64,000 bases of DNA from a bacterium (GTDB lineage: Bacteria > Zhuqueibacterota > QNDG01 > JAFGCO01): NCBI GenBank assembly GCA_016930535.1, contig JAFGGN010000085.1, positions 39,281-103,280 of the forward strand. The letters are read 5' to 3'. Under the pieces are notes generated by a model. It was not told where the DNA came from, did not search any database, and saw only the letters and a program-made list of their open reading frames with translations. Below, piece after piece: positions 3,496-64,000 of this stretch; the stretch's first letter is position 1; each line of letters opens with the position of its first letter. The position numbers were made by a program, and so were the translations under genes.

Positions 3496-3514
3496 TGAAG
3501 GGTTTACCTCCTCC

Positions 3515-3973: not shown

Positions 3974-4076
3974 CCATACCAAGAAAAAAAGTGGGTTGAA
4001 GAACCCACTTTTCATCGTTAAATTTAATAAAATAAAATCTCTTATGCAAGAAAAATATACTTATTCACCAATGCCA

Positions 4077-7726: not shown

Positions 7727-7738
7727 AGCTCCCCGCGG

Positions 7739-7758
7739 CATGCCGCGGGGAATGCGTC
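7739..7758. other. perfect GC-rich hairpin (CCCCGCGGCA|TGCCGCGGGG) between convergent genes, without a flanking U-tract
   Basis: A 10-bp perfect inverted repeat centred on GCATGC lies directly after the epmA stop. No T-run follows on either strand. Confidence 0.5.
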
Positions 7759-7800
7759 CGGCGTTCAGTTTCTGCATGACATCTTTCCTTAGCGCTGGCA

Positions 7801-28071: not shown

Positions 28072-29445
28072 TTATCGCTGCGGAGGTCTTGGAGGTTCAG
28101 AAAGCTGAAACGGCAGCACAGGAGCCGGAGAAATACTGGCCTCGACAAAAGGCTCACGGGAATTGTTGCCCGGAAGGATCAGGGCATTATGCTGCAATCC
28201 CATCCACTGCAGCCGGTTGTATGAACTGACGATATCCGGCGGCGGTGAAAACACGAGTCGCGCGCGTCCGCGTGCGGACGTTTCGACGAGATGCCGGACT
28301 TCATACGTCACACGCATCTGATTGTAATTCTGTGTCACTTCCCAAATTTTCGGATTCAGCATATAATCCTGGGCATTGATAAAAGAACCGTCGTATCTCA
28401 GCGCATTGTGAAAATGATTCTGGGCGATCGAGAAATTACCCTGATCGAGCGCATCAAGACCGCGGCAGTAGCTGATAAACGCCAGCATATTTTCCGTGGG
28501 AATTTCGAGCAGCTGATCACGCTGTCTGTCGTTCATAAAAATATCGAAGAAATCCGAAATCCGCATGGCCAGTTCTTTTTCAATTTTAAAAAAGCGGGCC
28601 AGATTGCCGTCGAAATTCATGCTCAGGGCTGTGGCATTCGTTTCAGCGGTAATGATTTCCGAATCCAGCGTCATCTTCAGATCATCCGTAATCAGGTACG
28701 ATCCGTTGATCAGATACCTGGCACCCAGAATACGCGCCACGCGCTGCTGAACACCCGGTTCGCGCATGCTGACCGGATTCAGTCCCAGCTCGGACATCAG
28801 ACGGTTCAGCTTGACACGGTCGATGACCACCAGATTCGGTATAGTGGAAAGGTCCTGGGCGATGATTTCAGCAAGACCTTTCTGCAGGGGATCCCATTCG
28901 ACATTGTCGCTCAGGTTGAGAAAATAGGTCACCACCACGCTGTTTTCCGGAAATTCCTCGAAACGGCGGATATCCTCTTCCTGAATGGCCTTGTTCAGTT
29001 CACGTCCGATTTTCTGCTGCGAGACCCAGTTGAGACGGCCGAACATGAAATAGCGGTAGGGATCGTCATCGGGCAGCACTTTGTAACGCCTGTAAACGGA
29101 CAGGGCCTCGTTTTCCTGATCAAGCGCCTCCCGGGACATCCCGAGAAAAAACAGAGCCTTGCCATGAGCCGGATCCTTTTCCAATACTTTTTCAAATATT
29201 TTGGCCGCGGCCGAGTAGCTCTGCTTGTGCCAGTAGGCCACACCGATTCCTGTCATCGCTTCCTTATCGTAAAGAATGAAGCGCTTCCCGTCACGGATGC
29301 GCGGCCTCAGCATCATCAGATAATTCCGGATGGCCTTGTCATAATCCTTACGATCAAGCTCTTCTTCCGCAGCATGATATTTTGAAGTTGCGCACCCGCT
29401 GAAGAACACAGCGAATATCAAAACTGCAGCAAGTTTCCATTTCAT
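28072..29445 (-). CDS. lipoprotein with N-terminal TPR region, central CsgG/LpoB/FlgO-like alpha/beta domain and Pro-rich C-terminal tail, paralog A
   Basis: The lipobox is FFSGC. It is paralogous to 37015..38442 (KDYDKAIRNYLMML vs NDYERAMQAYIRSL; DGKRFILYDKEAMTGIGVA vs DGKRYIRYQPVAMTRIGIS; LPDDDP vs LPADDP). The central segment VVVTYFLNLSDN...LAEIIAQDLS is weaker than in the paralog. The tail is SEPPRPPQR. Confidence 0.55.
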   Translation of the reverse strand: MKWKLAAVLIFAVFFSGCATSKYHAAEEELDRKDYDKAIRNYLMMLRPRIRDGKRFILYDKEAMTGIGVAYWHKQSYSAAAKIFEKVLEKDPAHGKALFFLGMSREALDQENEALSVYRRYKVLPDDDPYRYFMFGRLNWVSQQKIGRELNKAIQEEDIRRFEEFPENSVVVTYFLNLSDNVEWDPLQKGLAEIIAQDLSTIPNLVVIDRVKLNRLMSELGLNPVSMREPGVQQRVARILGARYLINGSYLITDDLKMTLDSEIITAETNATALSMNFDGNLARFFKIEKELAMRISDFFDIFMNDRQRDQLLEIPTENMLAFISYCRGLDALDQGNFSIAQNHFHNALRYDGSFINAQDYMLNPKIWEVTQNYNQMRVTYEVRHLVETSARGRARLVFSPPPDIVSSYNRLQWMGLQHNALILPGNNSREPFVEASISPAPVLPFQLSEPPRPPQR

Positions 29446-37014: not shown

Positions 37015-38442
37015 TTATGGACGATGCGGCGGTGGCGGCGGATCCGGTAAATACCAGGGATCCAGCGGATACGGCGCCGGCGGATCCGGAGGATCCGGCA
37101 GACCATCCGGTAACAAATCGGTAAAGTCATCAAAATCGATACCTTCAAACGGATCTCTTGAATCGCTGCCAGGTATGAAACCCGCATCCAGATACCAGCC
37201 CATTTGCTGCAGCCGGTCTATGGACTGGGCACTGGCCAGGGCATCATAATCGGATTCCGCACCGAAACCGCCCGATTTATATCTCAGCCGTTTCGCCATG
37301 GTTTTACACAACAGGGCGAGATCCGGCGTTTGAACGGCAAGAAAGATATCCGTCGCTGCAAGTATCTGTTCCGCCATGGCGAACGCCGGGTCCTCTTCAA
37401 GCGCTTTGGCCAGATAGAGCTGTGCGGTCTCGTACTGCCCCAGGTCGAGCGCGTGCAGTGCATAGGCGTAATTGAAAAAAGCCCGGACACTGCGTGTGGC
37501 AGGCTCTCTCAAACGGGTTCTCTGCAAATCGGTCAGCCGAATGCCGAGATCCTTCAATAAATTGACCACCATTTTTTTCTCCAGCAGCACAATATCGCTC
37601 AACTGGCCCTGGACATCGGATTCCCTGACACCGCGAATGCCTGAAAACAGGATGGTTCTCTGGTGAAAATTGAGCTGACCGCTTCCGGCCAGCCGCATGT
37701 CCCCCTGCAGCACGGATCCCGCTCCCATCATTCTCTGAATTTTTTCGACATTTTCAATCTGACTGGATTCATTGCTTTGCCAGCCCATATATTTCTGGAG
37801 CTGCATCAGTTTATCCCTGGGAATTACCTGAAATCCACCCATCCGGTCCAGATCGCTGATAATCAGGCTTGCAACGCCTTTTGCGATGATGGTTCCTCTC
37901 AGATCGGATCCTCCGTATCTGAAATCGAGCACGACAATGCGGTCCAGCGGATATTCGGATGCAGGTCCGGGCCCCTTGGCCGCCAGCAGACGTGCCTCCT
38001 TGGAATACATCTGCTCCCGTACCGCATACAGTCTGCCTTTCATGGCATCACGGGACGGATCATCGGCCGGAAGACGGTCATAACCGGCATAGATCTGCTG
38101 GGCTTTTTTGAGGTCTCCCTTTTTTTCATAGCACACACCGAGAAAAAAATGAGCGGGGCCATAGTCGGGTGTTTTCCTGAGAATAAAATTGAACACCTTG
38201 ATGGCACCATCGACCATGTTCAGCTGCATCGCAGAAATGCCGATACGCGTCATAGCGACCGGCTGATACCGGATATACCGTTTTCCGTCCGCGGTCTGTA
38301 CCTGCAGAGACCGGATATAGGCCTGCATGGCTCTTTCGTAATCATTCTGGGCAAAAAAGGCATCACCGTTCTGCGTGGACATACTCGTGCATCCGAGCAT
38401 GAAGGCAAACAGGCCTATTCCTGCCCATCGCCACTTTGTCAT
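37015..38442 (-). CDS. lipoprotein with N-terminal TPR region, central CsgG/LpoB/FlgO-like domain and Pro-rich C-terminal tail, paralog B
   Basis: The lipobox is FMLGC. The central domain matches the AVLxF...ERxxL pattern of the CsgG/LpoB/FlgO lipoprotein fold (IVVLDFRYGGSDLRGTIIAKGVASLIISDLDRMGGFQVIPRDKLMQLQ). The C-terminal tail is DPPDPPAPYPLDPWYLPDPPPPPHRP. There is a 33-nt gap before giant gene B. Confidence 0.6.
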   Translation of the reverse strand: MTKWRWAGIGLFAFMLGCTSMSTQNGDAFFAQNDYERAMQAYIRSLQVQTADGKRYIRYQPVAMTRIGISAMQLNMVDGAIKVFNFILRKTPDYGPAHFFLGVCYEKKGDLKKAQQIYAGYDRLPADDPSRDAMKGRLYAVREQMYSKEARLLAAKGPGPASEYPLDRIVVLDFRYGGSDLRGTIIAKGVASLIISDLDRMGGFQVIPRDKLMQLQKYMGWQSNESSQIENVEKIQRMMGAGSVLQGDMRLAGSGQLNFHQRTILFSGIRGVRESDVQGQLSDIVLLEKKMVVNLLKDLGIRLTDLQRTRLREPATRSVRAFFNYAYALHALDLGQYETAQLYLAKALEEDPAFAMAEQILAATDIFLAVQTPDLALLCKTMAKRLRYKSGGFGAESDYDALASAQSIDRLQQMGWYLDAGFIPGSDSRDPFEGIDFDDFTDLLPDGLPDPPDPPAPYPLDPWYLPDPPPPPHRP

Positions 38443-40915: not shown

Positions 40916-40919
40916 GCGG

Positions 40920-41213
40920 TTAAAATAACTGCCTGAAGGCATCGAGCACAAGAGGAAAACGTTTGTCAACCAGCTGATAATAGATTTGTGTGCCCTCTCT
41001 CCTGAAATTCAGGTATCCGTGATTTTTTAAATATTTCAACTGCTGTGATACATAGGATTGTTTGGCTCCCAGCAATTCCTGGATCTCACCTACCCTTTTT
41101 TCCCCCTGATTCAGGATACACAATATCTTTAACCGTGTGGTATTGGACACCACTTTGAGAAAAGGTACAATCTGGTCACACTCCTGAATCGCATCACGCA
41201 CCGCAGAATCCAT
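40920..41213 (-). CDS. ArsR/SmtB family transcriptional regulator
   Basis: 97 aa with a winged-HTH LKILCILNQGEKRVGEIQELLGAKQSYVSQQLKYLKNHGYL. Its stop is only 4 nt from the stop of the convergent GWxTD gene. Confidence 0.75.
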   Translation of the reverse strand: MDSAVRDAIQECDQIVPFLKVVSNTTRLKILCILNQGEKRVGEIQELLGAKQSYVSQQLKYLKNHGYLNFRREGTQIYYQLVDKRFPLVLDAFRQLF

Positions 41214-41330
41214 TGAGCCTCCGTGTTCAATATCAGCATCCAGTTATAAAAAGACCTGATCAATATATCATTTTACGTTTTTGAAGTCAAGTAAAAAGTA
41301 CGGTTTAAAACATCATTCCGATCCGTTCAG

Positions 41331-45242: not shown

Positions 45243-45263
45243 CCACGCCCGCCCGGTAAAAAA

Positions 45264-45300
45264 TAAGGCCGGTAAAGTTCATGTCTGAACACCGGCCCTC
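45264..45300. terminator. candidate bidirectional terminator between convergent genes (GGCCGGT-17 nt loop-ACCGGCC)
   Basis: A 7-bp GC stem with a long loop. An A6 run precedes it on the plus strand, giving a U-tract for the minus transcript. A T-rich CTCGCTTTATTTCC follows it, serving the plus transcript. Confidence 0.35.
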
Positions 45301-45398
45301 GCTTTATTTCCTGCGACCGAAAAGCATGGGGATCGGTTCATGGCTGAAATCCGGTCCCGGTATCAATGAATGTCACCCGAACAGCTGAAGCGGGCTAC

Positions 45399-45785
45399 CT
45401 ATTCCGTCTGAAATTTACCCATGGCACTGATGGCACGATTGATTTTTTCCAGCAGTTCTTCCGTCGTGAACGGCTTGGCTATAAAATCCGCCGCTCCCAT
45501 TTCGCGGACAGTAGCTTCCACTTCCTTGCCCGGATAGGCCGTAATAAAAATCACGGGAATCCGTTCCGTGGTGGAATACATCTTCAAACAATCAAAAGCC
45601 TTCACCCCGCCGATTTTGGGCATCCGGATATCCATCAGTATCAGATCCGGCTGTTCTGCATAGGCCATCTTGATCGCCTGATTGCAGTCCGATACTTCGA
45701 CCGTCTCAAATCCATTCGCCCTCAACCTCGAACCGATCAGCATCAAAATATCAGCATCGTCATCGGCAATTAATATTTTTGGCAT
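45399..45785 (-). CDS. response regulator, receiver domain only
   Basis: ILIADDDADILMLI...DLILMDIRMPKIGG...VIFITAY. The start was trimmed to MPKILIA (45785). It is the last gene of a 5-gene operon. Confidence 0.8.
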   Translation of the reverse strand: MPKILIADDDADILMLIGSRLRANGFETVEVSDCNQAIKMAYAEQPDLILMDIRMPKIGGVKAFDCLKMYSTTERIPVIFITAYPGKEVEATVREMGAADFIAKPFTTEELLEKINRAISAMGKFQTE

Positions 45786-45828
45786 AACACACCTCGCAAG
45801 CATTTATGATTTGATTGACCCCTTATGG

Positions 45829-53493: not shown

Positions 53494-54837
53494 TCAAACC
53501 ACGCCCTGATCCATCATGGCGTTCGCGACTTTCAGAAATCCGCCGATATTGGCCCCGTTGACATAATCCACAAAACCGCTGTCCTGTTTTCCATACTTGA
53601 AGCATGTGGCGTGAATGGCCTGCATAATCTCTTTGAGCCGGCTGTCCACTTCCTCTCTTGACCAGTTCATCTTCATGGCATTCTGGGACATCTCAAGTCC
53701 GGATACGGCCACGCCGCCGGCATTGGCCGCTTTGCCGGGTGCGAAGAGCAGTTCCGCTTTCTGAAGCGCATGCACTGCATCCAGTGTACAGGGCATATTG
53801 GCGCCTTCGCAGACGCAAATGCATTTGTTCTCAATGAGACTGGCGGCGTCATCCGCATTCAGTTCATTCTGAATTGCACAGGGGATGGCGATATCGCAGG
53901 GTTGTTCCCACGGCCTTTTACCGGCAAAGAACCGTGCACCGGAATGCGCTTCCGCATAGGGTGCGATGACATCATTGTTGCTGGATCTCAGACGCACCAT
54001 GGTCGTGATCTTGTCTCCGGATACGCCGTCCTCATCGAGGATATACCCATCCGGACCGGACAGTGTGATGACCTTGGCTCCCAACTCGTTCAGTTTGAGT
54101 GCGACACCCCATGCCACATTGCCGAATCCGGACACGGCGACGCGTTTTCCCTTGAGCTGTTCGCCCCGTGTTTTCAGCATTTCCCCTGCAAAATAAACCA
54201 CGCCGAAACCCGTGGCTTCCGGACGGATGAGACTGCCGCCCCATTCAAGCCCTTTCCCGGTCAGAACGCCGGTGAATTCATTCTTCAGCTTTTTATACTG
54301 TCCGAACAGATATCCGATTTCGCGGCCACCGACACCGATATCACCCGCAGGCACATCCGTGTTCGGACCGATATACCGGTACAGCTCGTTCATGAAACTC
54401 TGGCAGAACCGCATGATCTCATGATCGCTCCGGCCCTTCGGATTAAAATCAGCACCGCCCTTGCCCGCTCCGAGAGGCAGATGGGTCAGACTGTTCTTGA
54501 ACGTCTGTTCGAGGGCCAGAAACTTCAGGCTGCTCAGATTCACGGACGGATGGAAGCGCAATCCCCCCTTATACGGGCCGATGGCACTGTTCATTTCAAC
54601 CCGGAATCCGCGGTTGATTCGTATTTCTCCCTGATCATCCATCCAGGGAACTCGAAACATAATGACCCTTTCGGGCTCGATCATCCGTTCAAATATTTTG
54701 GCTGCCTGATATTCGGGATACTGTTCATAAACCAGTGCGACGGATGCAGCGATTTCTTCGACAGCCTGATGAAATTCGACTTCGCCTGGATTGTTCTGAC
54801 GGACACTGGCCATGAGCTCCTTGACATAATCCGGCAT
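53494..54837 (-). CDS. gdhA: NADP-specific glutamate dehydrogenase
   Basis: GGLRFHPSVNLSSLKFLALEQTFKNSLTHLPLGAGKGGADFNPKG carries the catalytic-lysine GGxK motif of the Glu/Leu/Phe/Val dehydrogenase family. The start was trimmed from the track's 54972 to MPDYVKELMASV at 54837, which has an AAGGAGG RBS. Confidence 0.85.
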   Translation of the reverse strand: MPDYVKELMASVRQNNPGEVEFHQAVEEIAASVALVYEQYPEYQAAKIFERMIEPERVIMFRVPWMDDQGEIRINRGFRVEMNSAIGPYKGGLRFHPSVNLSSLKFLALEQTFKNSLTHLPLGAGKGGADFNPKGRSDHEIMRFCQSFMNELYRYIGPNTDVPAGDIGVGGREIGYLFGQYKKLKNEFTGVLTGKGLEWGGSLIRPEATGFGVVYFAGEMLKTRGEQLKGKRVAVSGFGNVAWGVALKLNELGAKVITLSGPDGYILDEDGVSGDKITTMVRLRSSNNDVIAPYAEAHSGARFFAGKRPWEQPCDIAIPCAIQNELNADDAASLIENKCICVCEGANMPCTLDAVHALQKAELLFAPGKAANAGGVAVSGLEMSQNAMKMNWSREEVDSRLKEIMQAIHATCFKYGKQDSGFVDYVNGANIGGFLKVANAMMDQGVV

Positions 54838-55047
54838 AATTGTCCTCCTTAAGGGAAAGGGTCCATCCATATCGAAACAGGTTGATGAGTGCAGCCTCAG
54901 CAAGCCGGGATATCCGGAAACCGGACACGGCCGGCTGATGAGATCGTCCTCATCGGAATATATGATCTGCATTTCAAAAAATCAAAGGAATTATCAGGAG
55001 GATTCATGAGAAATTGTTCTTGATTTTCTGCATTCAAAAATGTAAGT

Positions 55048-55065
55048 TTGTGAAACATTTCACAA
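55048..55065. promoter_or_regulatory. Rex operator TTGTGAA-ACAT-TTCACAA (perfect consensus palindrome)
   Basis: It matches the Rex box consensus TTGTGAAnnnnTTCACAA exactly. It sits 34 nt upstream of the rex start and about 210 nt upstream of the divergent gdhA start. Confidence 0.7.
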
Positions 55066-55098
55066 TAGTTGATCACATTGAACAAACCAGGACAATCC

Positions 55099-55728
55099 AT
55101 GGAACATCACCTGATTTCAGAAAAAACCGTCGAGCGGTTGATTTTATACAGGCGCATACTCCTGACAATCGATCCTGAAAAACAGAAAAACATCGTCTCA
55201 CATCAGCTGGCACTCCTGACCGGTGTAAAATCCCCTCAGGTCCGCAGGGACCTGATGGTGATCGGTTATTCGGGATCCCCTGCACGGGGCTACGATATCA
55301 GCTCCCTGATCGAAAGCATCGGTCATTTTATCGACGCACCTGTCAAACAGGGAATTGCGCTTGCAGGCGTCGGAAACATTGGAAGAGCCATCATCGATTA
55401 TTTCAAAGGCAGGCGGCCGAAGCTGGATATTTCGGCTATTTTCGATATCGATCCGGAAAAAATCAACCGTGTGCTCCATGGATGCAGGTGCTATCATATC
55501 GATCAGATGGAAGCAATTATCCGTGCCGGGAAAATCCATATGGGCATCATTACCGTACCTGCGGATTCCGCGCAGAGCGTTGCGGAGCATATGATCAGGG
55601 CCGGCGTGACCGGCATATTGAACTACGCTCCGGTCAAACTCGTGCATCCGGAAAATATTCATGTGGAAAACCGGGACATCACGCTCGTGATCGAAAAAGT
55701 GGCCTATTTTTCCCGCCAGGTCCGGTGA
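55099..55728 (+). CDS. rex: redox-sensing transcriptional repressor Rex
   Basis: The winged-helix N-terminus is RLILYRRIL. The Rossmann NADH-binding motif is GIALAGVGNIGRAII. The protein is 210 aa. The start MEHHL at 55099 has an AGGA RBS. Confidence 0.8.
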   Translation: MEHHLISEKTVERLILYRRILLTIDPEKQKNIVSHQLALLTGVKSPQVRRDLMVIGYSGSPARGYDISSLIESIGHFIDAPVKQGIALAGVGNIGRAIIDYFKGRRPKLDISAIFDIDPEKINRVLHGCRCYHIDQMEAIIRAGKIHMGIITVPADSAQSVAEHMIRAGVTGILNYAPVKLVHPENIHVENRDITLVIEKVAYFSRQVR

Positions 55729-55919
55729 CTGCTCCGATCGTTCTTGACTTTATGATAAATTTTATGCAAATTAGTAAGATAAGGACCATGGTTTGTCACA
55801 TTCCGTGAATCCTGATGCAATCCGGGGTTCGGAACCGGGTACTTGATCATCCCGGACTTCATCGAACCGTCACCTGAACCGAAGGGCAGTCCCGCTGCCT
55901 GACAGCAAGGGAGGAAAAC

Positions 55920-57977
55920 ATGATCCGCTTTTTCAAAACATGCACCATCATTGCCTTCATCCTGGCTTCCGGATCCGTCCCGGCCAGAGACACCCTCACG
56001 TATGAATTCCCAAGAATCATCGTCACTGCAAACCGGTACGAGAAGCAGCTGTTTGAAACGCATTTGCCTGCCGGCCTGATTCATGAAGCACGGATCTGGA
56101 ACTCGGGATATACCGGTCTGGGAGATATTCTCCGGACAGAAGCAGGCATATCACAGACACAGACCGGTCCCTGGAGCGAAAAACCCGTGATTCGCGGTTT
56201 GTCCGGTGCGCATGTCCTGACACTCGTGGACGGGTTGAAGCTCAACGTGCTCAGGGAATACGGGGACCATGCACCGCTTGTCGACGTGGACCAGATCGAA
56301 CGGATCGAGATTATACGGGGTCCGGCTTCGGTGCTTTACGGCTCGGAAGCGGTCGCCGGTGTCGTGAACATCATAACCAAATCGGTTCATGCTTCGCCGG
56401 AGAGGATGCTGCTGAAAAGTCAGTTCGGAACGCGGATGGCTTCGGTGAATAATCAGTGGAGCCAGTTTCTGCGGGTAGAAGGGAAATATGGAAAATCCGA
56501 CCTGATGCTGAATGTCACGCATCGCAGAGCAGGTGATGTCGAGACACCTTCCGGTCCGCTGAACAACACGGCCTTTTCAGGGATGACGGCCGATCTGAAA
56601 CTGGGTTTTCATATCAAAGCTGAGCAGCGGCTCTCATTGTCCGGTCATCTGACCCGAATGGACAATGTCGGAATTCCGATCAATCCCTACGCCAAAGAAG
56701 CGGCATTCAGCATGTACGATAAAAACCGGCTGCATGCCCGGTACTTCTGGCTGCCCGTGAACAAACGGATCACGCATCTGGAATTCGGAACTTATCATGA
56801 AACCGGTGAGCGCGCGTTCGATGCCCTGATTTATCATGTACCGAAAGGGCCGCTTTACGTGAACAACAAACTGAATGCACACAGGGATGTAATGACCTCG
56901 GGAGGCAATTTTCAGATCACACTGAAACTTTTCGACAGCAACCTCCTGACAGGCGGCATCGACATTTTTCAGGAAAAGGATAAAACAAGACGCATCGCGG
57001 ATGCACAGGTTGTCGATGCCCGTGATCAGGTCAAGGCGGATCCGCCCGCCGATCTGTCCCCGCCGACTCCGAACTCCGGACGTGCGGGTGCGGCCGGGTT
57101 CATGGAAGATGACTGGCAGATCATGTCCTGGCTGTCACTGAATTCCGGATTTCGTTTCGATGCGCTCGTGAGCGAAGCCCGGGGTACGGCCGGCACACTG
57201 ACCGAGTCGGACCTGCAGAAGACGGACCGTGATTTCAGCGGGAATCTCGGAGCCGTCATACGCCTGTCACCCGCTTCCCGGTTCACGATCAATCTGGGCA
57301 GGTCCTTCAGGGCACCTTCGCTGCAGGAACGTTTTTTCAGGGGAACGGCCCAGGTGGGATTTCTTGAAGGCAATCCTGCACTTCAAAGTGAAACCGGTTT
57401 CAGCCTTGATTTTGGCTTTCGCTGGAAGACCAGCCGGCTGGAGTCCTGGCTGAACGTGTTTCAGAACAGCCTGAACAATTTTATCGTCATGAAACCGGCT
57501 TCAGCGGCCAATGATACTTTTTTCTATGACAATGTCGGACATGCCGTACTTCGCGGGATCGAGTGGCAGGCCGCCTGGAGAATCGACACACACTGGTCCG
57601 TTTACGCGAATGCCGCATATACGCGCGGCAGGGACACCGGGCTGTCTGAGGATCTTCCCAAAATTCCTCCTCTGAACGGCCGGTCTGGCGTCCGCTTTGA
57701 GAACACGGCAGGAAACCGTTGGATTTCTATTTCAGGAGAATTTGCTGCCGCACAGAACCGCGTCACGGATAACGAACTGCCCACGGACGGTTACATGCTT
57801 CTGGACCTGGATTCGGGCCTGAACCTGCAATCCCTGATCGATCCGGGATTCCCATTGTTTGTTACTTTCAATATCCATAACCTGATGGATAAAAAGTATC
57901 GGGATCACATGTCCAATGTGACCTGGTGGTCCGCCCCGGGAAGAAATTTCATACTGGGAATACGCGGGAACTTTTAA
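55920..57977 (+). CDS. TonB-dependent outer-membrane receptor
   Basis: It has a signal peptide. A TonB-box-like PRIIVTANR lies near the N-terminus. The plug domain contains VIRGLSG...VLTLVDGLKLN and IEIIRGPASVLYGSEAVAGVVNIITK. The C-terminus is NFILGIRGNF (terminal Phe). The protein is 685 aa. Confidence 0.8.
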   Translation: MIRFFKTCTIIAFILASGSVPARDTLTYEFPRIIVTANRYEKQLFETHLPAGLIHEARIWNSGYTGLGDILRTEAGISQTQTGPWSEKPVIRGLSGAHVLTLVDGLKLNVLREYGDHAPLVDVDQIERIEIIRGPASVLYGSEAVAGVVNIITKSVHASPERMLLKSQFGTRMASVNNQWSQFLRVEGKYGKSDLMLNVTHRRAGDVETPSGPLNNTAFSGMTADLKLGFHIKAEQRLSLSGHLTRMDNVGIPINPYAKEAAFSMYDKNRLHARYFWLPVNKRITHLEFGTYHETGERAFDALIYHVPKGPLYVNNKLNAHRDVMTSGGNFQITLKLFDSNLLTGGIDIFQEKDKTRRIADAQVVDARDQVKADPPADLSPPTPNSGRAGAAGFMEDDWQIMSWLSLNSGFRFDALVSEARGTAGTLTESDLQKTDRDFSGNLGAVIRLSPASRFTINLGRSFRAPSLQERFFRGTAQVGFLEGNPALQSETGFSLDFGFRWKTSRLESWLNVFQNSLNNFIVMKPASAANDTFFYDNVGHAVLRGIEWQAAWRIDTHWSVYANAAYTRGRDTGLSEDLPKIPPLNGRSGVRFENTAGNRWISISGEFAAAQNRVTDNELPTDGYMLLDLDSGLNLQSLIDPGFPLFVTFNIHNLMDKKYRDHMSNVTWWSAPGRNFILGIRGNF

Positions 57978-58172
57978 GGCATAATTATTGTAATATAATA
58001 AGATCGGCCGGGGGCCTGTTACCCACAAATCTCTCCCTCCCACAGGTCCTCGGCCGTTTTTATTCCGGTCATTCCCGAATCATTTCTCCATCGTAAACCG
58101 GTCTCTTCATTGCGGCCGAAACCGGAGCATGTATCCGGCAGCGGACATTTAAAAAAAAGCAGGACCATGCAT

Positions 58173-58700
58173 ATGAAAAATGCCGTTTATATCGCACGCC
58201 TGGGATTGATCATCGCACTGACGCTGGTGGTGCAAATCGCAGGACTTCCCCAGCCTGTCACCGGTCCTCTGATCAATGCACTGCTCTTTCTGACAACGAC
58301 TGTACTGGGATTGTCTGCCGGATTGATACTCGGATCATTCACACCGCTCGCCGCCCTGATCAGGGGCCAGCTCCCGGCCGTGCTTGCACCCATGATTCCG
58401 TTCATCATACTCGGAAACGCAGTGCTTGTATTTGTCTTTGACATGACCCGGAAGATGCTTCGCAGAAGATGGACATCCGGACCTGATTTCTGGGCGGCCG
58501 TGATCCTGTCTGCAGCCGCAAAATTTCTGCTGCTGGCCGCTTCGGTCAAATGGATGGTTCCCCTGATTACCGGGCATGCGCTTCCCGCCAAGCTGGAACT
58601 GGCCATGACTTTTCCGCAGTTCCTGACCGCACTTTCAGGCGGCCTGATCGGTTATTTTCTTATCCGGATATGGAAAAAGGCGGAGTATAAACAGCAGTGA
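58173..58700 (+). CDS. small polytopic membrane protein (ECF-transporter S-component-like, unassigned)
   Basis: About 175 aa from MKNAVYIARLGLIIALTLVV, with about 5-6 TM helices rich in G/A/L/P. Family not resolved. The ORF track start 58110 was trimmed. Confidence 0.4.
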   Translation: MKNAVYIARLGLIIALTLVVQIAGLPQPVTGPLINALLFLTTTVLGLSAGLILGSFTPLAALIRGQLPAVLAPMIPFIILGNAVLVFVFDMTRKMLRRRWTSGPDFWAAVILSAAAKFLLLAASVKWMVPLITGHALPAKLELAMTFPQFLTALSGGLIGYFLIRIWKKAEYKQQ

Positions 58701-58778
58701 ATGGGTGTATGGGTAAAAGTGTTGAAGCGTATATGGGTATATGGGTATATGAGTAAATGGGTATATGTGTAAATGGGG
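58701..58778. repeat. degenerate tandem ATGGGTAT 8-mer repeat (about 7 copies)
   Basis: atgggtgt atgggtaa ... atgggtat atgggtat atgagtaa atgggtat atgtgtaa atgggg, directly after the stop of the membrane-protein gene. Confidence 0.7.
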
Positions 58779-58800
58779 CCCTGCAACCCAGCTCCTGTTA

Positions 58801-58943
58801 TTGACCGCAGACAGCAGGACCGCTGACCGCAAATGCGCCGGAGAACCGGAGACGCGGTGAAACGGAGATACTGTCTTTGACCGTGGACGGCAGACCGCTG
58901 ACCGCAAATGCGCCGGAGAACCGGAGATGCGGTGAAACGGAGA
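58801..58943. repeat. two tandem copies of a 67-68 nt direct repeat (58801-58868 and 58877-58943)
   Basis: The copies share ...GACCGCTGACCGCAAATGCGCCGGAGAACCGGAGA[C/T]GCGGTGAAACGGAGA and are about 90% identical. An inverted partner of the 3' end (GTCTCTCCGTTTC, 58967-58979) and a 10-bp palindrome AAACCGGTTT (58948-58957) follow. Confidence 0.7.
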
Positions 58944-59007
58944 CTGAAAACCGGTTTCGCCTTTTCCTCCGTCTCTCCGTTTCTCAGCCCACCGTTTCAC
59001 GTTCCGG

Positions 59008-59136
59008 CCCAACGACACGACGACCCAACGACCCAAAGACCCGACGACCCGATGACCCGATGACCCAAAGACCCGACGACCCGATGACCCGATGACCCAA
59101 CGACCCAAAGACCCGACGACCCGATGACCCGACGAC
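59008..59136. repeat. tandem 8-nt microsatellite GACCC[GA]A[TCA] (about 15 copies); the minus strand reads (NNNGGGTC)n, a G3N5 array with G-quadruplex potential
   Basis: gacccaac gacccaaa gacccgac gacccgat gacccgat gacccaaa gacccgac gacccgat gacccgat gacccaac gacccaaa gacccgac gacccgat gacccgac, with a 32-nt super-period. It sits in the 3' flank of the minus-strand 1101-aa gene. Confidence 0.75.
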
Positions 59137-59170
59137 TTCTTTGTTCTTCGTTCTTTAATCTTTAATCTTT

Positions 59171-62100
59171 TTAATAACTCCCCCCCACCCTGAATCCGAA
59201 ATACATGCGGAAATCGCCGCGGTCTATATCCAGCCGGGGCACGGATACCCTGGGCCAGGCCATGATAAAATAGACCGTGGAAGGAATTCTGTAAAAATGA
59301 GCGACAGACAGGCGCAGCTCGAATCCCACATCCTGCAGCCACCGGGCATTCTCGAGTACGGTCAGGCTGATGTCGTTGGAATTCCAGGCAGTGCCGGTTT
59401 CATAAAAAACGGATCCGTACAGCCTGTCCAGATAGAGATGAAAAATCTGTTTTCCGATTGGCCGCATGAGCGGAAGCGTGTATTTGATGCGGTGTGAAAG
59501 CAGTTTGCTGCCCGTCTGTGTGAAATACGGATATCCGCGCAGCGTTTCCATGCCGCCCAGGTACAGGCGAAGCGGGAAATATCCGTCTATATCGATCAGT
59601 TCCTCTCTTGCAGGAATTCTCTGGTCCATGAAAATGCCCATGGTTTCCAGACCGAGCGTATGGCGGCGCAGTGGCAGGCTGATCAGTTCGATCCAGTTGA
59701 ACATCAGCTGATTGACCGGGAATTTCCGTAACGAAGGTATATTCGGCGGTCCGGAACCGGGACCGCTGTTTTCAATATAAATCAGGGAATCCGTGATCGT
59801 GGTCTGGAGCCGTGAATAGGCGGCATATAAAAGTCTCGCGCCGCGGGGATTGATCATGGCATCGGCCGTGGGTTTCAGCTTTGAATACTGCCAGTACAAT
59901 GACAGTTCATCACTCTTGAAAAACCGTGTGTCGAACAGGGTCATCCTGCTTTCGAGATGATACGGCATCCCCTCGAACATCAGCTCCTGTCCCTCGTAAA
60001 AAAACCGTGTCCGGTCATCCACGATCACATCTTCAGCCACGCGCCATGCATAATCACGGTGCATGAACTGAGCGCCAGCCGTCTGCCTCTGGCTGACAGG
60101 CACATCCAGACCGGCGCCGATATACGTGAAATCATAGGTGGATTTATATCCGCCCTTCACCTCCTGATCCAGTTCGACGCGCACATTGGCCAGGGTATCC
60201 ACACTTTCATCCGGATAAAATACGATAAGATCGCTTCTGAAGGAATCCTGCACATGCTGCGACTGATCGTCAAAATCGTTGATCACGCGTTTTGCATAGA
60301 ATCCGTATCCCCTGGGTGCCAGTGTCCTGTCCTGCGTCAGCAGCGCCGGAAGGCGCCGTTCATAGTACCCGCTGACCGTGTAGTTCAGATCCACGTACTC
60401 GGAATGTTTCAGTGCACGCCCGGCAAGCAGAGTGCCCGCAAAATAATCCCGGTCGAACAGGTCCCCGACCGCTGCCTGTACACCCAGATTGATCGTATTG
60501 ATCGTAAACCGGTTACCGACAAAATTCGGACTGAGACTGATAATCGGGGTCACTCCGAGCAGAGCCCACCGTTTTCCCGCTTTCCCGGTCGTGTACAGTT
60601 CCCTGACCGGTTTTCCTGTGTAAATGCGCACATAATCCCGGTGAACGGTTTCATAGGGCACGGCGGTTCCCCCGGTTTTCCAGGGCATGGCGTAAATGTT
60701 GTAATTCGCCGCATGATACCCCGAATAAACCAGGGTTTTCCCGTCCGAAGACAAAGACGGACGGAAGGCCCCGCCGATAACGGATGTGTGCCTGGATATC
60801 CGTGCGGTCGCCATGTCATATGAATAGATATTGAAAATGCCGTCCCAGTCCGAAGCGAATACAATCGCGGATCCGTCCGGCATCCAGACCGGATCCCGTT
60901 CATCCGCAGCGGAATGAACCAGTATCTGCACGGCGGATGGATCCAGAAACGCCGCACTGTCCGGAGCTTCGGCTTTTTTCGTATAGGACGGCATGTCAGC
61001 CGGGACCATCGCGATGTCCCGGTCCGCTTCTCTATAAACACTGAAAACGACAGTCTGACCATCCGGGGACCAGGAGGGGCTGTAAACCTGCGTACCGTCG
61101 TTGTAGGCAGTCAGATAGCGGATATTCGTACCGTCTGTATTCATCAGTCCCAGATTGGTCGAACCATCCTGATTCCGGACAAAAACGATACGGTTTCCGT
61201 CCGGAGAAACCGCGGGATCCCTCGCCCGCAGATTCCGGCTGATCCGGCGTGATTTTTTCTTGTCCATGTCGTAAATATAGAGATCGTTATAATTTTCTTT
61301 TCTCTTCACGTAGACGATCTTTCGGCTGTCGGGTGTCCAGGCCAGGCGGCTGTCCACCTCCTCCTCCAGTTTTTCAACGCGGCCGGTTCCGGGATCATAG
61401 ATCCTGAGATCGGTCAGTGCGAATTCGCATCCTTCGTTGGAAACATAGGCGATCCGCGACCCGTCAGGCGACAGGACAGGATAGTAATCCAGAAATCCGC
61501 CATCCACGATCAGGGTTCCCTCATCGAACTGTTCGGTCAGCGTGGACATGCGCACCGCATCCGGATTGCATTTGTAGGGGATCCAGGTTCCTGCAAGGAC
61601 CGGAGCCGGACCTGAATCCGCTTCGGACTGACGTTTGCCCGCCATATCCCAGTAACTTTCATATATGGCATATACCCAATCCTCGTACAGTTGGTCTGCC
61701 TTGATCCCCAGTACTTTTTCAATGGTTTTTTCGAAAGAAAACAGACCGATATGATGCGTGAGTGCTTCCGCCTTGTCTTCGCCGTAGGCCTGATGAATGT
61801 AATTGACCAGTGCGTAACCCTGATTGTAAATCATTTCCGAATGAAGTCCGTCTCCGGCGAACACACCCATTTCATCGTACCCGAGCAGATCCGATTCCAG
61901 CACCGCCATTCTCAGCAGCATGTCCCGGTGCGTATCCCATGAATCATAACCGTTCTGCTGGGACTCGAACTGGGCGATGCCTTCCGCATACCAGCCAGGC
62001 ACGTTCAAATGGTACATGGGCAGAGAAAAATAATAGTCGGGATTGACATTGTACCGGCCGAAATTCAGCTGAAAATAAGAAAACCATTTGTTGCGCGCCG

Positions 62101-62476
62101 CTTTCAGGGAAAATATATGCGCGAGCTCATGCGTGATCACGTTCCGGATCCAGTTGTGGGACCCCCGCAGCTCGAATTCCAGATCGGAAGCCCAGATTTC
62201 GATCTTATTCTGAGCATAACTGGCATATCCGTTTGAAAAATCCGTTTCATCATGCACCTGTACATAAATTCTGCCCACCTCGTCGAATGCATCGAATGCG
62301 GCAGCCAGGGGCGTATAGACCTCCTCCGCAACGTCCGCGACACGGCGGGCCGTATTTTCCGATCCCGGATAATAAAAAATGTGAAAATGATCCGTAAGAA
62401 TCACCGACTGTGCCCACAGCGCCTGGCCAAGGATTAAAAACAGGACAACTGAACGCATCAATTGACGGGTATTCAT
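59171..62476 (-). CDS. 1101-aa secreted protein: N-terminal HExxH (peptidase-MA-like) region, central PD40/TolB-like beta-propeller repeats, C-terminal putative beta-barrel/unknown domain
   Basis: Signal peptide MNTRQLMRSVVLFLILGQALWAQ, with the start at 62476 and an AAGGAG RBS. ITHELAHIF is an HExxH motif. At least 6 PD40-like repeats are present (YPVLSPDGSRIAYVS, WTPDSRKIVYVKR, PAVSPDGNRIVFVRN, SPSWSPDGQTVVFSV, PVWMPDGSAIVFAS, RPSLSSDGKTLVYSG). A C-terminal 450 aa region rich in Y/G/R/F ends ...YFGFRVGGSY. Confidence 0.6.
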   Translation of the reverse strand: MNTRQLMRSVVLFLILGQALWAQSVILTDHFHIFYYPGSENTARRVADVAEEVYTPLAAAFDAFDEVGRIYVQVHDETDFSNGYASYAQNKIEIWASDLEFELRGSHNWIRNVITHELAHIFSLKAARNKWFSYFQLNFGRYNVNPDYYFSLPMYHLNVPGWYAEGIAQFESQQNGYDSWDTHRDMLLRMAVLESDLLGYDEMGVFAGDGLHSEMIYNQGYALVNYIHQAYGEDKAEALTHHIGLFSFEKTIEKVLGIKADQLYEDWVYAIYESYWDMAGKRQSEADSGPAPVLAGTWIPYKCNPDAVRMSTLTEQFDEGTLIVDGGFLDYYPVLSPDGSRIAYVSNEGCEFALTDLRIYDPGTGRVEKLEEEVDSRLAWTPDSRKIVYVKRKENYNDLYIYDMDKKKSRRISRNLRARDPAVSPDGNRIVFVRNQDGSTNLGLMNTDGTNIRYLTAYNDGTQVYSPSWSPDGQTVVFSVYREADRDIAMVPADMPSYTKKAEAPDSAAFLDPSAVQILVHSAADERDPVWMPDGSAIVFASDWDGIFNIYSYDMATARISRHTSVIGGAFRPSLSSDGKTLVYSGYHAANYNIYAMPWKTGGTAVPYETVHRDYVRIYTGKPVRELYTTGKAGKRWALLGVTPIISLSPNFVGNRFTINTINLGVQAAVGDLFDRDYFAGTLLAGRALKHSEYVDLNYTVSGYYERRLPALLTQDRTLAPRGYGFYAKRVINDFDDQSQHVQDSFRSDLIVFYPDESVDTLANVRVELDQEVKGGYKSTYDFTYIGAGLDVPVSQRQTAGAQFMHRDYAWRVAEDVIVDDRTRFFYEGQELMFEGMPYHLESRMTLFDTRFFKSDELSLYWQYSKLKPTADAMINPRGARLLYAAYSRLQTTITDSLIYIENSGPGSGPPNIPSLRKFPVNQLMFNWIELISLPLRRHTLGLETMGIFMDQRIPAREELIDIDGYFPLRLYLGGMETLRGYPYFTQTGSKLLSHRIKYTLPLMRPIGKQIFHLYLDRLYGSVFYETGTAWNSNDISLTVLENARWLQDVGFELRLSVAHFYRIPSTVYFIMAWPRVSVPRLDIDRGDFRMYFGFRVGGSY

Positions 62477-62508
62477 GAAGGGCTCCTTAATCATGTACAA
62501 ATCAAACG

Positions 62509-64000
62509 TTATTCGCCCAGCTGCACATGAACCGATATATTCCCGGCGGATTTCCCTGGAAGCGGGACAACATCCCCTTCGACCGGTTCGCCGTTCACCG
62601 TAAGCCGGGTTCTGCTGCCTTTTCCGATCCGCTTTACGGTAATGCGGTATGTCCTGTCCCTGAAAATCCGCTCGGCCTCGAATCCCTGCCAGCTTTCAGG
62701 AATAACCGGATCGATTTTCAATCCGCTGTAGGTGGGCCGGATGCCCAGAATCCATTGCGTTCCGGCCACATAGGTCCAGGAAGACGTGCCTGTCAGCCAG
62801 GTATTCCGCCCCATACCGTAATTGGGGTGCTCGGGACTGCATATATTCTGGCAGTAAACATAGGGCTCCGCCATATAGACATCCGCATCCTTTCTCGCGA
62901 GCGGGGAAATCTGTGTATAATACTGATATGCGAGGTCCGCTTTTCCCAGCATGGCCGCTGCGACGATGGCCCAGGTATTGGCATGGCAGAATATGCCGCC
63001 GTTTTCCTTGGCTCCGGGCGGAAACGTGGTGGTTCCCTGAATCCGCCGGGAATACACGGAATAAGGCGGCGTCATGAGTTTCAATCCATAGGGCGTGTTC
63101 AGATGCGTATGGGCGCTTTGCATGGCCCGGATCGTTTTTTCCCGGTCGTTCAGCCCGGCCATCACGGACCAGGTCTGAGTATTCAGCGATATCTGATTGA
63201 AGGGCTCCGAATGAATCCCGATGGGCTTTCCCTCGTCATCATAAGCCCTGGCGTACCATTCTCCGTCCCACGCCTCTTTTTCGATGATACCGGCCATCTC
63301 ACGGTGAAGCGCTCCGAACCTTTCCGCATCAGCATCCTTTTTCAGATACCGGCAGAGATCCGCCAGTTCGAGAAGCGCATAACAGAACTGTTCCCCTGTC
63401 CACACACTCTCCGCCTTGCCGCTGCCATGATCGATGTTCATGGTGTCGTTCCAGTCGGAAAATCCGATTCTCGGCAGGCCCCTGGGACCACGGTGAGCGA
63501 GCGTAAAATCCACGGCCTTCATCATATGATTCCAGACGGATTCCGCTTCGCCGTCATAATATTTGACGGATTCCTCCAGATAAGCCATGTCACCCGTTTC
63601 CTTCAAATATCCGCAGGTGCCGATGATGAGCCACAAATGGTCGTCGCTGAACCACTGGGGCCAGTCCGGAATTTCCTCGGCAAGTCCGGCACCGCCCTCA
63701 CCCGTGAGCGGAAACACCTGATGCCAGGCATGGCCGTCCCTGTACTGAAGTTTCCACAGCATGTTCAGCGTCGATTTGGCATGTCCTGGAAGATTGTGCA
63801 CCGTTCCCAGTGTATCCTGTGCGGAATCCCGGGTTCCCATACCCCTGCCGAGGCCCGTATCATAACCGGAAACGAACCGCGACCAGTACAGGTTGGCGCG
63901 GCACTGAACCGCGTTCCAGAAATTCAGCATGACATTCAGTTCCATGTCGGGTGTATTCACCGTAAATTTGCCGAGATAGGCTTTCCAGTCCGCTTTCAGG
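62509..64000 (-). CDS. glycoside hydrolase family 94 phosphorylase (cellobiose/chitobiose phosphorylase-like), 5' end runs off the window edge
   Basis: The reading frame is open to position 64000 (...LKADWKAYLGKFTVNTPDMELNVMLNFWNAVQCRANLYWSRFVSGYDTGLGRGMGTRDSAQD), matching the conserved GH94 central region of cellobiose phosphorylase. The C-terminal catalytic (alpha/alpha)6 region and a beta-sandwich tail are present. Confidence 0.75.
   Translation of the reverse strand, partial: LKADWKAYLGKFTVNTPDMELNVMLNFWNAVQCRANLYWSRFVSGYDTGLGRGMGTRDSAQDTLGTVHNLPGHAKSTLNMLWKLQYRDGHAWHQVFPLTGEGGAGLAEEIPDWPQWFSDDHLWLIIGTCGYLKETGDMAYLEESVKYYDGEAESVWNHMMKAVDFTLAHRGPRGLPRIGFSDWNDTMNIDHGSGKAESVWTGEQFCYALLELADLCRYLKKDADAERFGALHREMAGIIEKEAWDGEWYARAYDDEGKPIGIHSEPFNQISLNTQTWSVMAGLNDREKTIRAMQSAHTHLNTPYGLKLMTPPYSVYSRRIQGTTTFPPGAKENGGIFCHANTWAIVAAAMLGKADLAYQYYTQISPLARKDADVYMAEPYVYCQNICSPEHPNYGMGRNTWLTGTSSWTYVAGTQWILGIRPTYSGLKIDPVIPESWQGFEAERIFRDRTYRITVKRIGKGSRTRLTVNGEPVEGDVVPLPGKSAGNISVHVQLGE

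Follow-up and report, generated by a model that had tools for sequence, protein, structure and literature searches.

The 470-nt spacer that separates two convergent genes at positions 58701-59170 of the window (the whole stretch of 64,000 nt analysed here) has the appearance of simple-sequence DNA which evolves fast and at most aids the ending of transcription, and not of a conserved new element. In the reading that we favour, at a probability of roughly 45%, it is a real, lineage-specific simple-sequence cluster lodged in a spacer that contains 3' ends only and that is likely to be a two-way transcript-end zone. Repeats account for ~94% of the spacer (443 of 470 bases), with TRF scores of 70-251 that lie far above chance, the best score elsewhere in the 64 kb being 51. 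The window is ordinary chromosome, containing rimP-nusA-infB, surface proteins with T9SS sorting tails and two-component systems. On the left, the spacer is bordered by the TGA stop (58698-58700) of the gene that closes a run of Rex, TonB-dependent receptor and ECF-S genes, and on the right by the stop of a gene for a PD40 protein, which is preceded by a gene for a GH94 glycoside hydrolase, as is also the case in relatives. The features of the locus are:

58173..58700, plus strand: ECF-transporter S-component-like membrane protein of 175 aa, MBN1782140.1 (Pfam ECF_trnsprt, E 1e-6)
58701-58780, plus strand: array A, ~10 degenerate ATGGGTAT octamers (TRF period 8 with 82% matches, also period 32; repeat family D2)
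58801-58868, plus strand: 68-nt direct repeat, copy 1 (TRF; families D3/D4)
58876-58943, plus strand: 68-nt direct repeat, copy 2 (TRF; families D3/D4)
58909-58991, both strands: long imperfect hairpin of 83 nt (RNA fold; inverted repeats I1/I2)
58917-58943, plus strand: the 27-mer AGAACCGGAGATGCGGTGAAACGGAGA within repeat copy 2, which also occurs unchanged in metagenome contig L018
58958..59007, plus strand: inverted partner segment CTCCGTCT CTCCGTTT CTCAGCC CACCGTTTCACG (TRF 58967-58985, period 8; inverted repeats I1/I2)
59008-59136, minus strand: array D, 16 GACCCRAN octamers, of GTCGGGTC type on the minus strand (TRF periods 8, 32 and 40)
59137-59170, plus strand: 7-mer arrays (TTCTTYG)~3 and (TCTTTAA)~3, abutting the stop of the minus-strand gene (TRF)
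59171..62476, minus strand: PD40 / Tricorn-like / Peptidase_MA protein of 1101 aa (Pfam; 100% match to MBN1782141.1)

A first-pass annotation had described a convergent, non-coding spacer built of repeats between a membrane-protein gene and the 1101-aa gene, and this description is borne out, as is its stacking of four elements, namely a degenerate octamer array, two longer direct repeats, inverted partners with a palindrome and the GACCCRAN array, all of which were found where it had placed them. Its two tandem repeats of 67-68 nt are both present; they are separated by 7 nt and hence not strictly head-to-tail. Left out of that description were the short GACCGCW heptamer and CCGGAGAA-type octamer sub-arrays inside the 68-nt unit, the 7-mer arrays at the right edge and the mirror orientation of arrays A and D, with array A likewise a G3N5 array, though decayed and on the opposite strand. 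Such a mirror orientation of two arrays is expected by chance in 50% of cases. A large-scale perfect palindrome was considered and rejected, as the left arm compared with the reverse-complemented right arm reaches only z ~2.5-3; the mirror order is a qualitative one. Coding within the spacer was likewise rejected: the only ORFs that cross it, one of 235 aa on the minus strand (58635-59342) and one of 72 aa on the plus strand, are artefacts of composition, namely low-complexity read-throughs overlapping the two flanking genes, and gave no Pfam hit. Rfam 15 covariance models gave no match with E <= 1 in 57500-60000 and only a tRNA-Arg in the whole window. The other wide apparent convergent gaps of the window (40916-41330, 45243-45828 and 7727-7800) do not contain comparable repeats, and a further apparent gap at 1461-2196 is coding sequence of infB and no spacer at all.

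How could such a spacer have arisen? The anatomy suggests amplification of units of 7-8 nt by replication slippage and duplication of larger blocks, namely the 68-nt unit and, within the GACCCRAN array, blocks of 32-72 nt, with one inverted copy among the duplications giving rise to the central hairpin. Array A starts directly after the TGA stop of the plus-strand gene and holds six G3 tracts on the plus strand with spacers of 5, 21, 5, 13 and 13 nt. The two 68-nt repeats start 75 nt apart (TRF period 75, 1.9 copies, 92% matches, score 251) and share a 51-nt core that is 98% identical between the copies. Array D comprises 16.1 units according to TRF (83% matches, score 153) with higher-order periods of 32 and 40 nt at 89-90%, and contains two exact internal duplications of 39 nt at offsets of 32 and 72 nt as well as 15 C3 runs, 14 of which follow each other with spacers of exactly 5 nt. 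The exact 39-nt duplications together with the 32/40-nt periods point to recent block amplification. With its short head-to-tail units of high identity array D has one property of bacterial VNTR loci, and the spacer resembles these also in its block duplications and in the rapid turnover between relatives. A phage array, (TGACCCAA)n, has 6 copies in one contig and 12 in a related one. VNTR loci typically consist of a single array, whereas this spacer is filled by six or more different arrays, one of which has an inverted partner. Repeat DNA may survive at this site because a convergent spacer has neither promoter nor coding sequence that could be damaged. The phase variation that had been proposed for the arrays lacks a target, since they are located downstream of both genes.

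Is the spacer real? The independent Logan assembly of SRR13394437 matches 54623-58852 and 59140-63745 exactly and breaks on both sides, so that array A is confirmed by one Logan contig (L017) and 59140-59170 by another (L016). For the join and for the interior 58853-59139, in which the G3N5 array lies entirely, the deposited MAG contig is the only source. An assembly artefact, in which the flanks were misjoined via low-complexity reads or copy numbers were collapsed or expanded, would account for an interior that is never bridged. Moreover, exact repeats at k=31 would put the right break 37 nt further inward than it is, which may hint at low coverage or heterogeneity, and contigs of other assemblies likewise end at such spacers (L035, L043). 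Against an artefact, the end of the left contig at 58852 coincides with the C/T position at which the two 68-nt copies differ, as predicted for a branch between them. The hairpin pairs the confirmed left part with the interior, the higher-order structure of the array is orderly and the contig runs through without an N gap. In addition, the tetranucleotide signature is the same on the two flanks (r 0.88 with the neighbouring chunk as compared to 0.82 +/- 0.09 within the window), which makes a join of two different organisms unlikely. Taken together, we consider an artefact very improbable. Should the spacer be slippage debris only, it would also serve as a practical warning, as four contigs of independent assemblies end at such spacers, two at the locus described here (L016, L017) and two at a PrsW locus (L035, L043).

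The element at the centre of the spacer is the hairpin, which the first-pass annotation had missed and which is significantly more stable than shuffled sequences. Its stem is formed by the end of repeat copy 2 pairing with inverted CTCCGTYT-type units, the inverted partners of the repeat end lying at 58971-58988 and the loop at the palindrome AAACCGGTTT (58948-58957). On the plus strand the predicted folding energy is -35.1 kcal/mol (z -3.5, none of 200 shuffles being as stable) and on the minus strand -38.0 kcal/mol (z -2.7). A U-tract after the long hairpin is absent on either strand. A search for intrinsic terminators, in which a GC-rich hairpin leads straight into a U-tract, yielded no more than a stem of 7 bp at 58940-58958 (tail GCCTTTTCCT), and the 3 sites in the spacer compare with 2.2 expected; across this genome, canonical hairpin-plus-U terminators show no enrichment. 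With bidirectional terminator hairpins the structure shares that a single hairpin, readable from both strands, is located midway between two stop codons, but it differs from them in having no U or A tract on either side and a long, imperfect stem made of repeated units. A compact example of a bidirectional terminator is found at the same position in a relative (L005), AAAAAGACCTTGCGAAGG...CCTTCGCAAGGTC. Hairpins made from mirrored short tandem units also occur in viral contigs and, with -32.8 kcal/mol and z -4.3, in the convergent spacer of L036, which is unrelated. L027 was considered as homologue of the central hairpin and dismissed, as agreement at 5 of the 9 positions that the search pattern left unfixed is not significant.

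A second property with a bearing on transcript ends is strand composition. Rho utilisation sites are characterized by an excess of C over G over at least 70-80 nt, by the absence of structure and by a preference for A and C (PMC6407284; PMC12360218). On the minus strand of array A, 58701-58778 has 29 C and 1 G over its 78 nt and ranks first in C>G within the 64 kb; on the plus strand 58965-59042, with 36 C and 12 G, is the second-highest 78-nt window. These two windows were ranked among 128 kb of strand sequence; there is one per strand, and the transcript concerned reaches it only after the hairpin. That the C-rich strands of the arrays are the strongest C>G tracts had also been overlooked before. 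The minus-strand RNA of array A is C-rich, nearly free of G and unstructured (minimum free energy -2.1 kcal/mol), and the plus-strand RNA of array D (43% C, 20% G, 33% A) is unstructured as well, with -7.7 kcal/mol for 141 nt; the C-rich tracts of both arrays fold worse than shuffles. Unstructured RNA with C>G over at least 70-80 nt, as described for Rho-dependent termination (PMC6407284), is thus found downstream of the gene. The extreme values arise because the amplified units hold CCC and little G, and they are not independent evidence of function. The C-run spacing of 8 nt does not match the roughly 9-10 nt given for Rho footprint plus linker (PMC12360218). Compared with Rho-dependent terminators, in which a rut site is combined with a pause, the likeness consists in A/C-rich, unstructured C>G tracts of at least 78 nt past the gene end with a hairpin nearby, and the difference in that natural rut sites are not tandem octamers and that the assignment is made here from composition only. 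A rho gene is not encoded in the 64-kb window.

From these two properties a likely mode of action can be sketched. Each transcript would first cross its own G-rich array and then the 83-nt hairpin, and read-through would expose a C-rich, G-poor, unstructured tract of 80-130 nt with a composition suited for Rho loading, which would be reached before the transcript turns antisense to the opposite gene. Hairpin and C-rich tracts could plausibly stop transcription from both directions in this way, as far as composition can tell. Formation of G-quadruplexes (G4) by (GUCGGGUC)n RNA or DNA would be possible in such a scheme and is not required by it.

Could G-quadruplexes be the actual purpose of the locus? 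In this alternative (GUCGGGUC)n RNA or G-rich non-template DNA would fold into several predicted G4s that protect the 3' end of the mRNA, block the polymerase or terminate transcription in an R-loop-type manner. A canonical G4 motif (at least four G3+ tracts with loops of 1-7 nt) is found at 59024-59130 on the minus strand, with 14 perfectly phased G3N5 tracts and 5-nt loops, and is the sole match to the canonical expression in the 64 kb with both strands scanned. At both arrays the nearest gene has the G-rich strand as its sense (non-template) strand, and Watson-Crick structure that could compete is scarce in the array RNA (z -0.6). The array had been placed in the 3' UTR of the 1101-aa gene, and indeed a minus-strand transcript of array D would start 34 nt past its stop. 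However, the G4Hunter score of array D is ~0.93-1.0 (mean 0.93 over 59008-59136) and so below the usual threshold of 1.2, because each unit also has two C on the G-rich strand; the earlier label of a textbook multi-G4 motif is correct as to the 14-15 G3 tracts with 5-nt loops and overstated given such scores of ~0.9-1.0. Array A reaches a mean of 0.80 and lacks the canonical motif owing to its loops (5, 21, 5, 13 and 13 nt), the spacers of 13-21 nt being too long, and no 25-nt window within the arrays attains 1.2. Furthermore, G4s with 5-nt loops and just three tetrads are of moderate stability, and the array is not conserved. RNA G4s are also reported to be generally depleted in bacteria, at least as Guo and Bartel (2016) are cited in PMC10801317. 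The closest precedent are the REP/BIME-associated G4/hairpin motifs HPG1 and HPG2 of E. coli, all of which are intergenic, often between convergent genes (Kaplan et al., 2016, PMC5100583). The likeness lies in the position near gene 3' ends, the potential for G4 and hairpin and the pairing on opposite strands, and the difference in that those are units of ~30-40 nt at dozens of loci that are conserved across bacteria (PMC5100583), whereas here tandem octamers occur at one locus with no second copy in the 64 kb or in relatives. On balance we regard a dedicated G4 element as improbable.

Does the spacer belong to a dispersed family? A REP/BIME- or MITE-like element, with the 68-nt unit or the GGTGAAACGGAGA arm as its signature, would fit the convergent-gene position and the partly palindromic unit, and the hairpin between two stop codons is an imperfect palindromic unit at gene 3' ends as is typical of REP/BIMEs. 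The many dispersed copies of that class are not seen within the 64 kb. No 11-mers beyond chance and no match to GGTGAAACGGRGA (0 mismatches) are shared between the spacer units and the other 63.5 kb, a second copy of the repeat unit is absent from 42 other loci, no spacer unit has a significant match in viral contigs, plasmids or phages, and there is no transposase or RAYT-type gene near the spacer. The earlier proposal of a genome-specific REP-like element finds no support, given the lack of any recurring unit in the other 63.5 kb, and its statement that such arrays are rare agrees with our finding none elsewhere in the window or in ~88 kb of relatives' DNA. What remains in favour of a family is the exact match of the 27-mer to the analogous convergent PrsW/pyrC spacer of a WOR-3-like contig (L018), 22 of the 27 positions being kept in the L018 orthologues L036-L041; yet the likeness ends at 27 nt. 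Such a family is therefore rated as a very unlikely explanation, and the 27-nt match is an oddity of the sequence. A derivation of the 68-nt unit from the 3' end of PrsW seemed suggested by DNA alignment (z 8.3 for L018, 3.0-3.7 for L036), and was rejected because an HMM of 16 PrsW C-terminal tails, run against the window in 2486 six-frame pieces, does not hit the unit. A bolder idea takes in the 27-nt match as well, namely that the spacer is a purpose-built two-way insulator, a hairpin flanked by strand-asymmetric octamer arrays in mirror orientation, with CGGAGAYNNGGTGAAACGGRGA, the exact 27-nt share with the WOR-3-like convergent spacer, as 3'-end signal for a factor that several FCB (Fibrobacterota-Chlorobiota-Bacteroidota) phyla have in common. 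The sense strand of each array, taken with respect to the nearest gene, would be G-rich and prone to G4s or R-loops, and for read-through from the opposite side the array would be C-rich and Rho-loading; we give this idea little credence.

Two further comparisons concern protein-binding sites and genomic repeat families. Omega and ParG bind arrays of heptads or tetramer boxes, and ribbon-helix-helix partition proteins read contiguous iterons of 7-8 bp, an arrangement that the sixteen contiguous 8-bp direct repeats of array D resemble, so that a candidate centromere-like site for such a partition protein or a nucleoid-protein site could be envisaged. But the window contains no par, rep, integrase or other mobile-element genes, the neighbours encode the TonB receptor, ECF-S, PD40 and GH94 proteins in place of an adjacent parA/parB-type or ribbon-helix-helix gene, and the array is not conserved in relatives, which leaves this the least credible of the alternatives. 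The heptamer arrays of cyanobacteria are similar in being non-coding intergenic tandem arrays of 7-8-nt units. These families are restricted to heterocystous cyanobacteria, with many loci per genome, whereas here a KSB1-like organism has one locus in 64 kb with mostly 8-nt units. The term STRR (short tandemly repeated repetitive) for these families is attested in PMC4748335 and PMC2670836.

The comparison with relatives finally brings in the strongest competitor of the favoured reading, that the spacer is neutral simple-sequence debris, i.e. slippage and duplication products at a rearrangement junction without a role in termination or anything else. At 66-70% protein identity relatives keep the order GH94 followed by PD40 (L002, L003 and L005 have it in common); their spacer is short and ordinary and the genes downstream are others, so that gene order breaks exactly at a spacer that is absent from all of them, a point that the earlier description had not included. 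A protein look-up across a genome collection yielded no more than one relative, at 23%. Debris would also agree with the lack of other copies and with the orthologous PrsW/pyrC spacers of another lineage, in which the array type is swapped between 88%-identical relatives. Similarly, octamer patterns were found at 16 and 10 loci in viral contigs and shuffled-core controls at 14 and 17, so that four arbitrary patterns are about equally frequent and constitute background. On the other hand, two convergent genes must end their transcripts within 470 nt that offer no other terminator-like feature, and the hairpin is significantly more stable than shuffles. Neutral debris differs from the lineage-specific cluster at a transcript-end zone solely in denying an incidental role, and we consider it possible though rather unlikely. 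What counts against the favoured reading is that the spacer is unique to this contig and shows no conservation indicative of selection.

If the spacer is slippage debris only, it is of modest use, as a clear instance of simple-sequence DNA gathering in the terminator-only spacers of uncultivated bacteria and as a candidate marker for strain typing (VNTR). If the proposed function holds true, bacteria can make two-way transcription insulators from amplified octamers, and the locus would be a natural test case for the cooperation of Rho loading, hairpins and G-rich non-template DNA at convergent gene ends.

The region between window positions 58701 and 59170 is the entire gap between two stop codons. 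Every element that the first-pass annotation had listed there from the sequence was recovered with Tandem Repeats Finder (TRF) and a repeat finder, and two small 7-mer arrays and sub-arrays within the 68-nt unit can be added to that list:

58173-58700, + strand: gene of the ECF-S-like membrane protein, whose TGA stop borders the region
58701-58780: array A, ~10 degenerate ATGGGTAT units
58801-58868 and 58876-58943: two 68-nt direct repeats, 75-nt spacing, 92% overall, 98% in a 51-nt core
58948-58957: palindrome AAACCGGTTT
58958-59007: inverted partners of the repeat end, surrounding the palindrome
59008-59136: GACCCRAN array, 16 units
59137-59170: the two 7-mer arrays
59171-62476, - strand: gene of the 1101-aa PD40/Tricorn-like protein, whose stop is the other border

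Repeats cover 443 of the 470 bases, and TRF scores are 70-251 as compared to at most 51 elsewhere across the 64 kb; the repeats are therefore not a product of chance. By definition the region is a tandem-repeat (VNTR-type) locus. The GACCCRAN array has higher-order periods of 32 and 40 nt and two exact internal duplications of 39 nt each, the mark of recent block amplification. Our preferred reading, to which we assign a rough probability of 0.45, is a lineage-specific cluster of simple-sequence DNA that slippage and duplication would have generated in a spacer likely to hold transcript ends only, and that plausibly serves as a two-way termination or insulation zone. Its origin is deduced from the anatomy, its function purely from composition and structure prediction.

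That the repeats are an assembly artefact is a weaker explanation. The exact flanking proteins are present in the Logan assembly of run SRR13394437, in which contig L017 is identical to 54623-58852 and contig L016 to 59140-63745; both edges, including array A and the first 68-nt copy, are therefore independently confirmed. L017 ends exactly at the lone C/T difference between the 68-nt copies, where a de Bruijn graph would break if both copies exist. Positions 58853-59139, with the whole GACCCRAN array, and the join are attested by the deposited MAG contig only. The right-hand break lies 37 nt farther out than predicted from exact repeats at k=31, which in our view would fit low coverage or heterogeneity at the array. 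The tetranucleotide composition of the right flank agrees with the adjacent chunk (r 0.88; within-window 0.82 +/- 0.09) and much more poorly with relatives (0.40-0.56), so that the two flanks are unlikely to come from different organisms.

The host is an uncultivated FCB-group bacterium with a NusA closest to named KSB1 proteins (74-77% identity), and the window is ordinary chromosome encoding rimP-nusA-infB, T9SS surface proteins and two-component systems. The infB frame (1-2190, - strand, more than 724 codons) runs past the window edge and completes the operon with nusA (2197-3567) and rimP (3515-4015); the + strand ORFs 24-863 and 984-1460 are shadow ORFs. Two giant surface proteins on the - strand (20489-28033, 2514 aa; 30604-36981, 2125 aa) share one domain set (LVIVD, Laminin_G_3, ASH/HYDIN Ig, FlgD_ig and a Por_Secre_tail T9SS sorting domain), and a TPR protein gene (28072-29445; 37015-38442) comes before each of the two genes in transcription order, which suggests that the module was duplicated. 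On the + strand, the genes at 55069-58700 form an uncommon series: a Rex-like redox repressor, a TonB-dependent receptor and the ECF-transporter S-component, with no ECF A or T genes nearby and no Rfam riboswitch upstream.

Contigs L002, L003/L004 and L005 encode the PD40 protein's nearest relatives (66-70% identity); there the order GH94 to PD40 is kept and is followed by an ordinary spacer of 80-180 nt and then by different genes, B3_4 and thereafter BlaR/BlaI and EF-G. No tandem arrays occur at this spacer in these relatives, and L005 has a compact hairpin at the corresponding position. As the relatives have other downstream genes and lack the arrays, the cluster sits exactly at a gene-order break and is, by this sequence comparison, lineage-specific. 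The NusA of L002, L003 and L005 is ~90% identical, and the GC content of these closest relatives, 41-44% against 53% in the window, marks a large within-lineage shift.

RNA folding places an 83-nt imperfect hairpin at the centre of the region (58909-58991), with -35.1 kcal/mol on the + strand (z -3.5; 0/200 shuffles equally stable) and -38.0 kcal/mol on the - strand (z -2.7). No U-tract follows it on either strand, as intrinsic terminators would have, and hairpin-plus-U terminators are not enriched in the genome. Beyond the hairpin, each direction of transcription would meet a C-rich tract. When all 128 kb (both strands) are scanned in 78-nt windows, the two with the strongest C>G bias fall on the C-rich strands of the arrays (C=29/G=1; C=36/G=12), although amplification of any CCC-containing unit yields extreme C skew automatically. 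As RNA, these tracts are essentially unstructured and fold less stably than shuffles do (-2.1 and -7.7 kcal/mol), matching the published description of Rho utilisation sites, which are C>G, at least 70-80 nt long and unstructured, with A and C preferred (PMC6407284; PMC12360218). Hairpin and distal C-rich tracts together may thus form the two-way termination or insulation zone. The main rival, a purely neutral cluster of the same origin, is in our view somewhat less likely than this; the absence of the cluster from relatives speaks for it, the hairpin's stability relative to shuffles against it. The arrays are mirrored, the left one carrying its G3 tracts on the + strand and the right one on the - strand, and GGGU pairs with ACCC in the whole-region fold, but such an orientation of two arrays is a coin flip, and the arm-to-arm alignment is weak (z ~2.5-3).

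A function based on G-quadruplexes (G4) is less probable than these. The only (G3+N1-7)x4 motif on either strand of the window lies at 59024-59130 on the - strand, with 14 consecutive G3 tracts, every spacer being 5 nt, and a fifteenth tract 13 nt away; in array A, + strand spacers reach 21 nt and the motif is absent. The - strand motif begins 34 nt past the PD40 stop codon with no hairpin between, and so would fall in the 3' untranslated region, as had been proposed. The canonical motif is thus real, but to call it textbook was too strong, since the G4Hunter mean of ~0.93 stays below threshold because every unit also has two C.

Among described systems, the nearest parallel is found in the intergenic G4/hairpin motifs of E. 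coli REP/BIME elements, which sit at the 3' ends of genes, in many cases where two genes converge, and are paired on opposite strands (PMC5100583). These motifs are dispersed and conserved, whereas the region is neither. Membership in a dispersed REP-like family, which the first-pass annotation had considered, is likewise weaker: REP/STRR families are multi-copy, no unit of the region recurs elsewhere in the window, and the 68-nt core has no matches in plasmids, phages or viral contigs. An array of protein-binding sites also ranks lower; the gene context is not that of partition sites. Scans over 2.9 million viral contigs provided a base rate, with 10 loci for (GACCCRAN)4 and 16 for (CGGAGANN)4 versus 14 and 17 for two shuffled-core controls; whatever their sequence, octamer arrays are thus about equally scarce, and nothing sets the units of the region apart. 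Some of these loci behave like the region itself. Related phage contigs carry an (TGACCCAA)n array, flanked by one and the same gene pair, in 6 or 12 copies (L007, L010 and L012 versus L008, 1538-1632), a clear copy-number variation. Some viral loci are nests of several different short arrays, and mirrored (CGGAGACG)n/(CGTCTCCG)n octamer arrays form hairpins of -47 to -79 kcal/mol:

L024, 5430-5545: mirrored-octamer hairpin
L026, 1410-1500: mirrored-octamer hairpin
L027, 7615-7715: mirrored-octamer hairpin

One 30-nt array, CGGAGACACGGAGACGCGGAGACGCGGAGA, occurs in four viral contigs with differing flanks (L020, L024, L026, L029).

A metagenome scan with CCGGAGAYGCGGTGAAACGGAGA returned a single contig, L018, which is WOR-3-like by its PrsW matches, the window organism being KSB1-like. 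The two share 27 identical nucleotides, AGAACCGGAGATGCGGTGAAACGGAGA (window 58917-58943, L018 1278-1304); for a 23-mer, the chance expectation is roughly estimated at 0.02-0.2. The L018 copy overlaps the stop codon of a gene for a PrsW protease, in what is likewise a convergent spacer (PrsW facing pyrC); further CGGAGA-type units and an octamer array, (TTACTCAA)6, come after it. Its 88% orthologues L036-L041 retain 22 of the 27 nt (L036 2046-2072), the remaining spacer being replaced by a hairpin of mirrored TTTAGTCTG-type units (-32.8 kcal/mol, z -4.3). The 74% orthologue L042 has neither the 27-mer, the TTACTCAA array nor the TTTAGTCTG hairpin, and the orthologous contigs L035 and L043, from two assemblies, end no more than 13 nt from the stop codon of PrsW. 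In this WOR-3-like lineage the PrsW/pyrC spacer trades short-repeat architectures among close relatives (L018 1290-1415, L036 2040-2235, L042 10738-10813). A derivation of the 68-nt unit from the degraded end of a PrsW gene was rejected, as an HMM of 16 PrsW tails did not match it. The repeat cluster of the window is a genuine and locally striking feature that is not conserved and is built from known kinds of parts.
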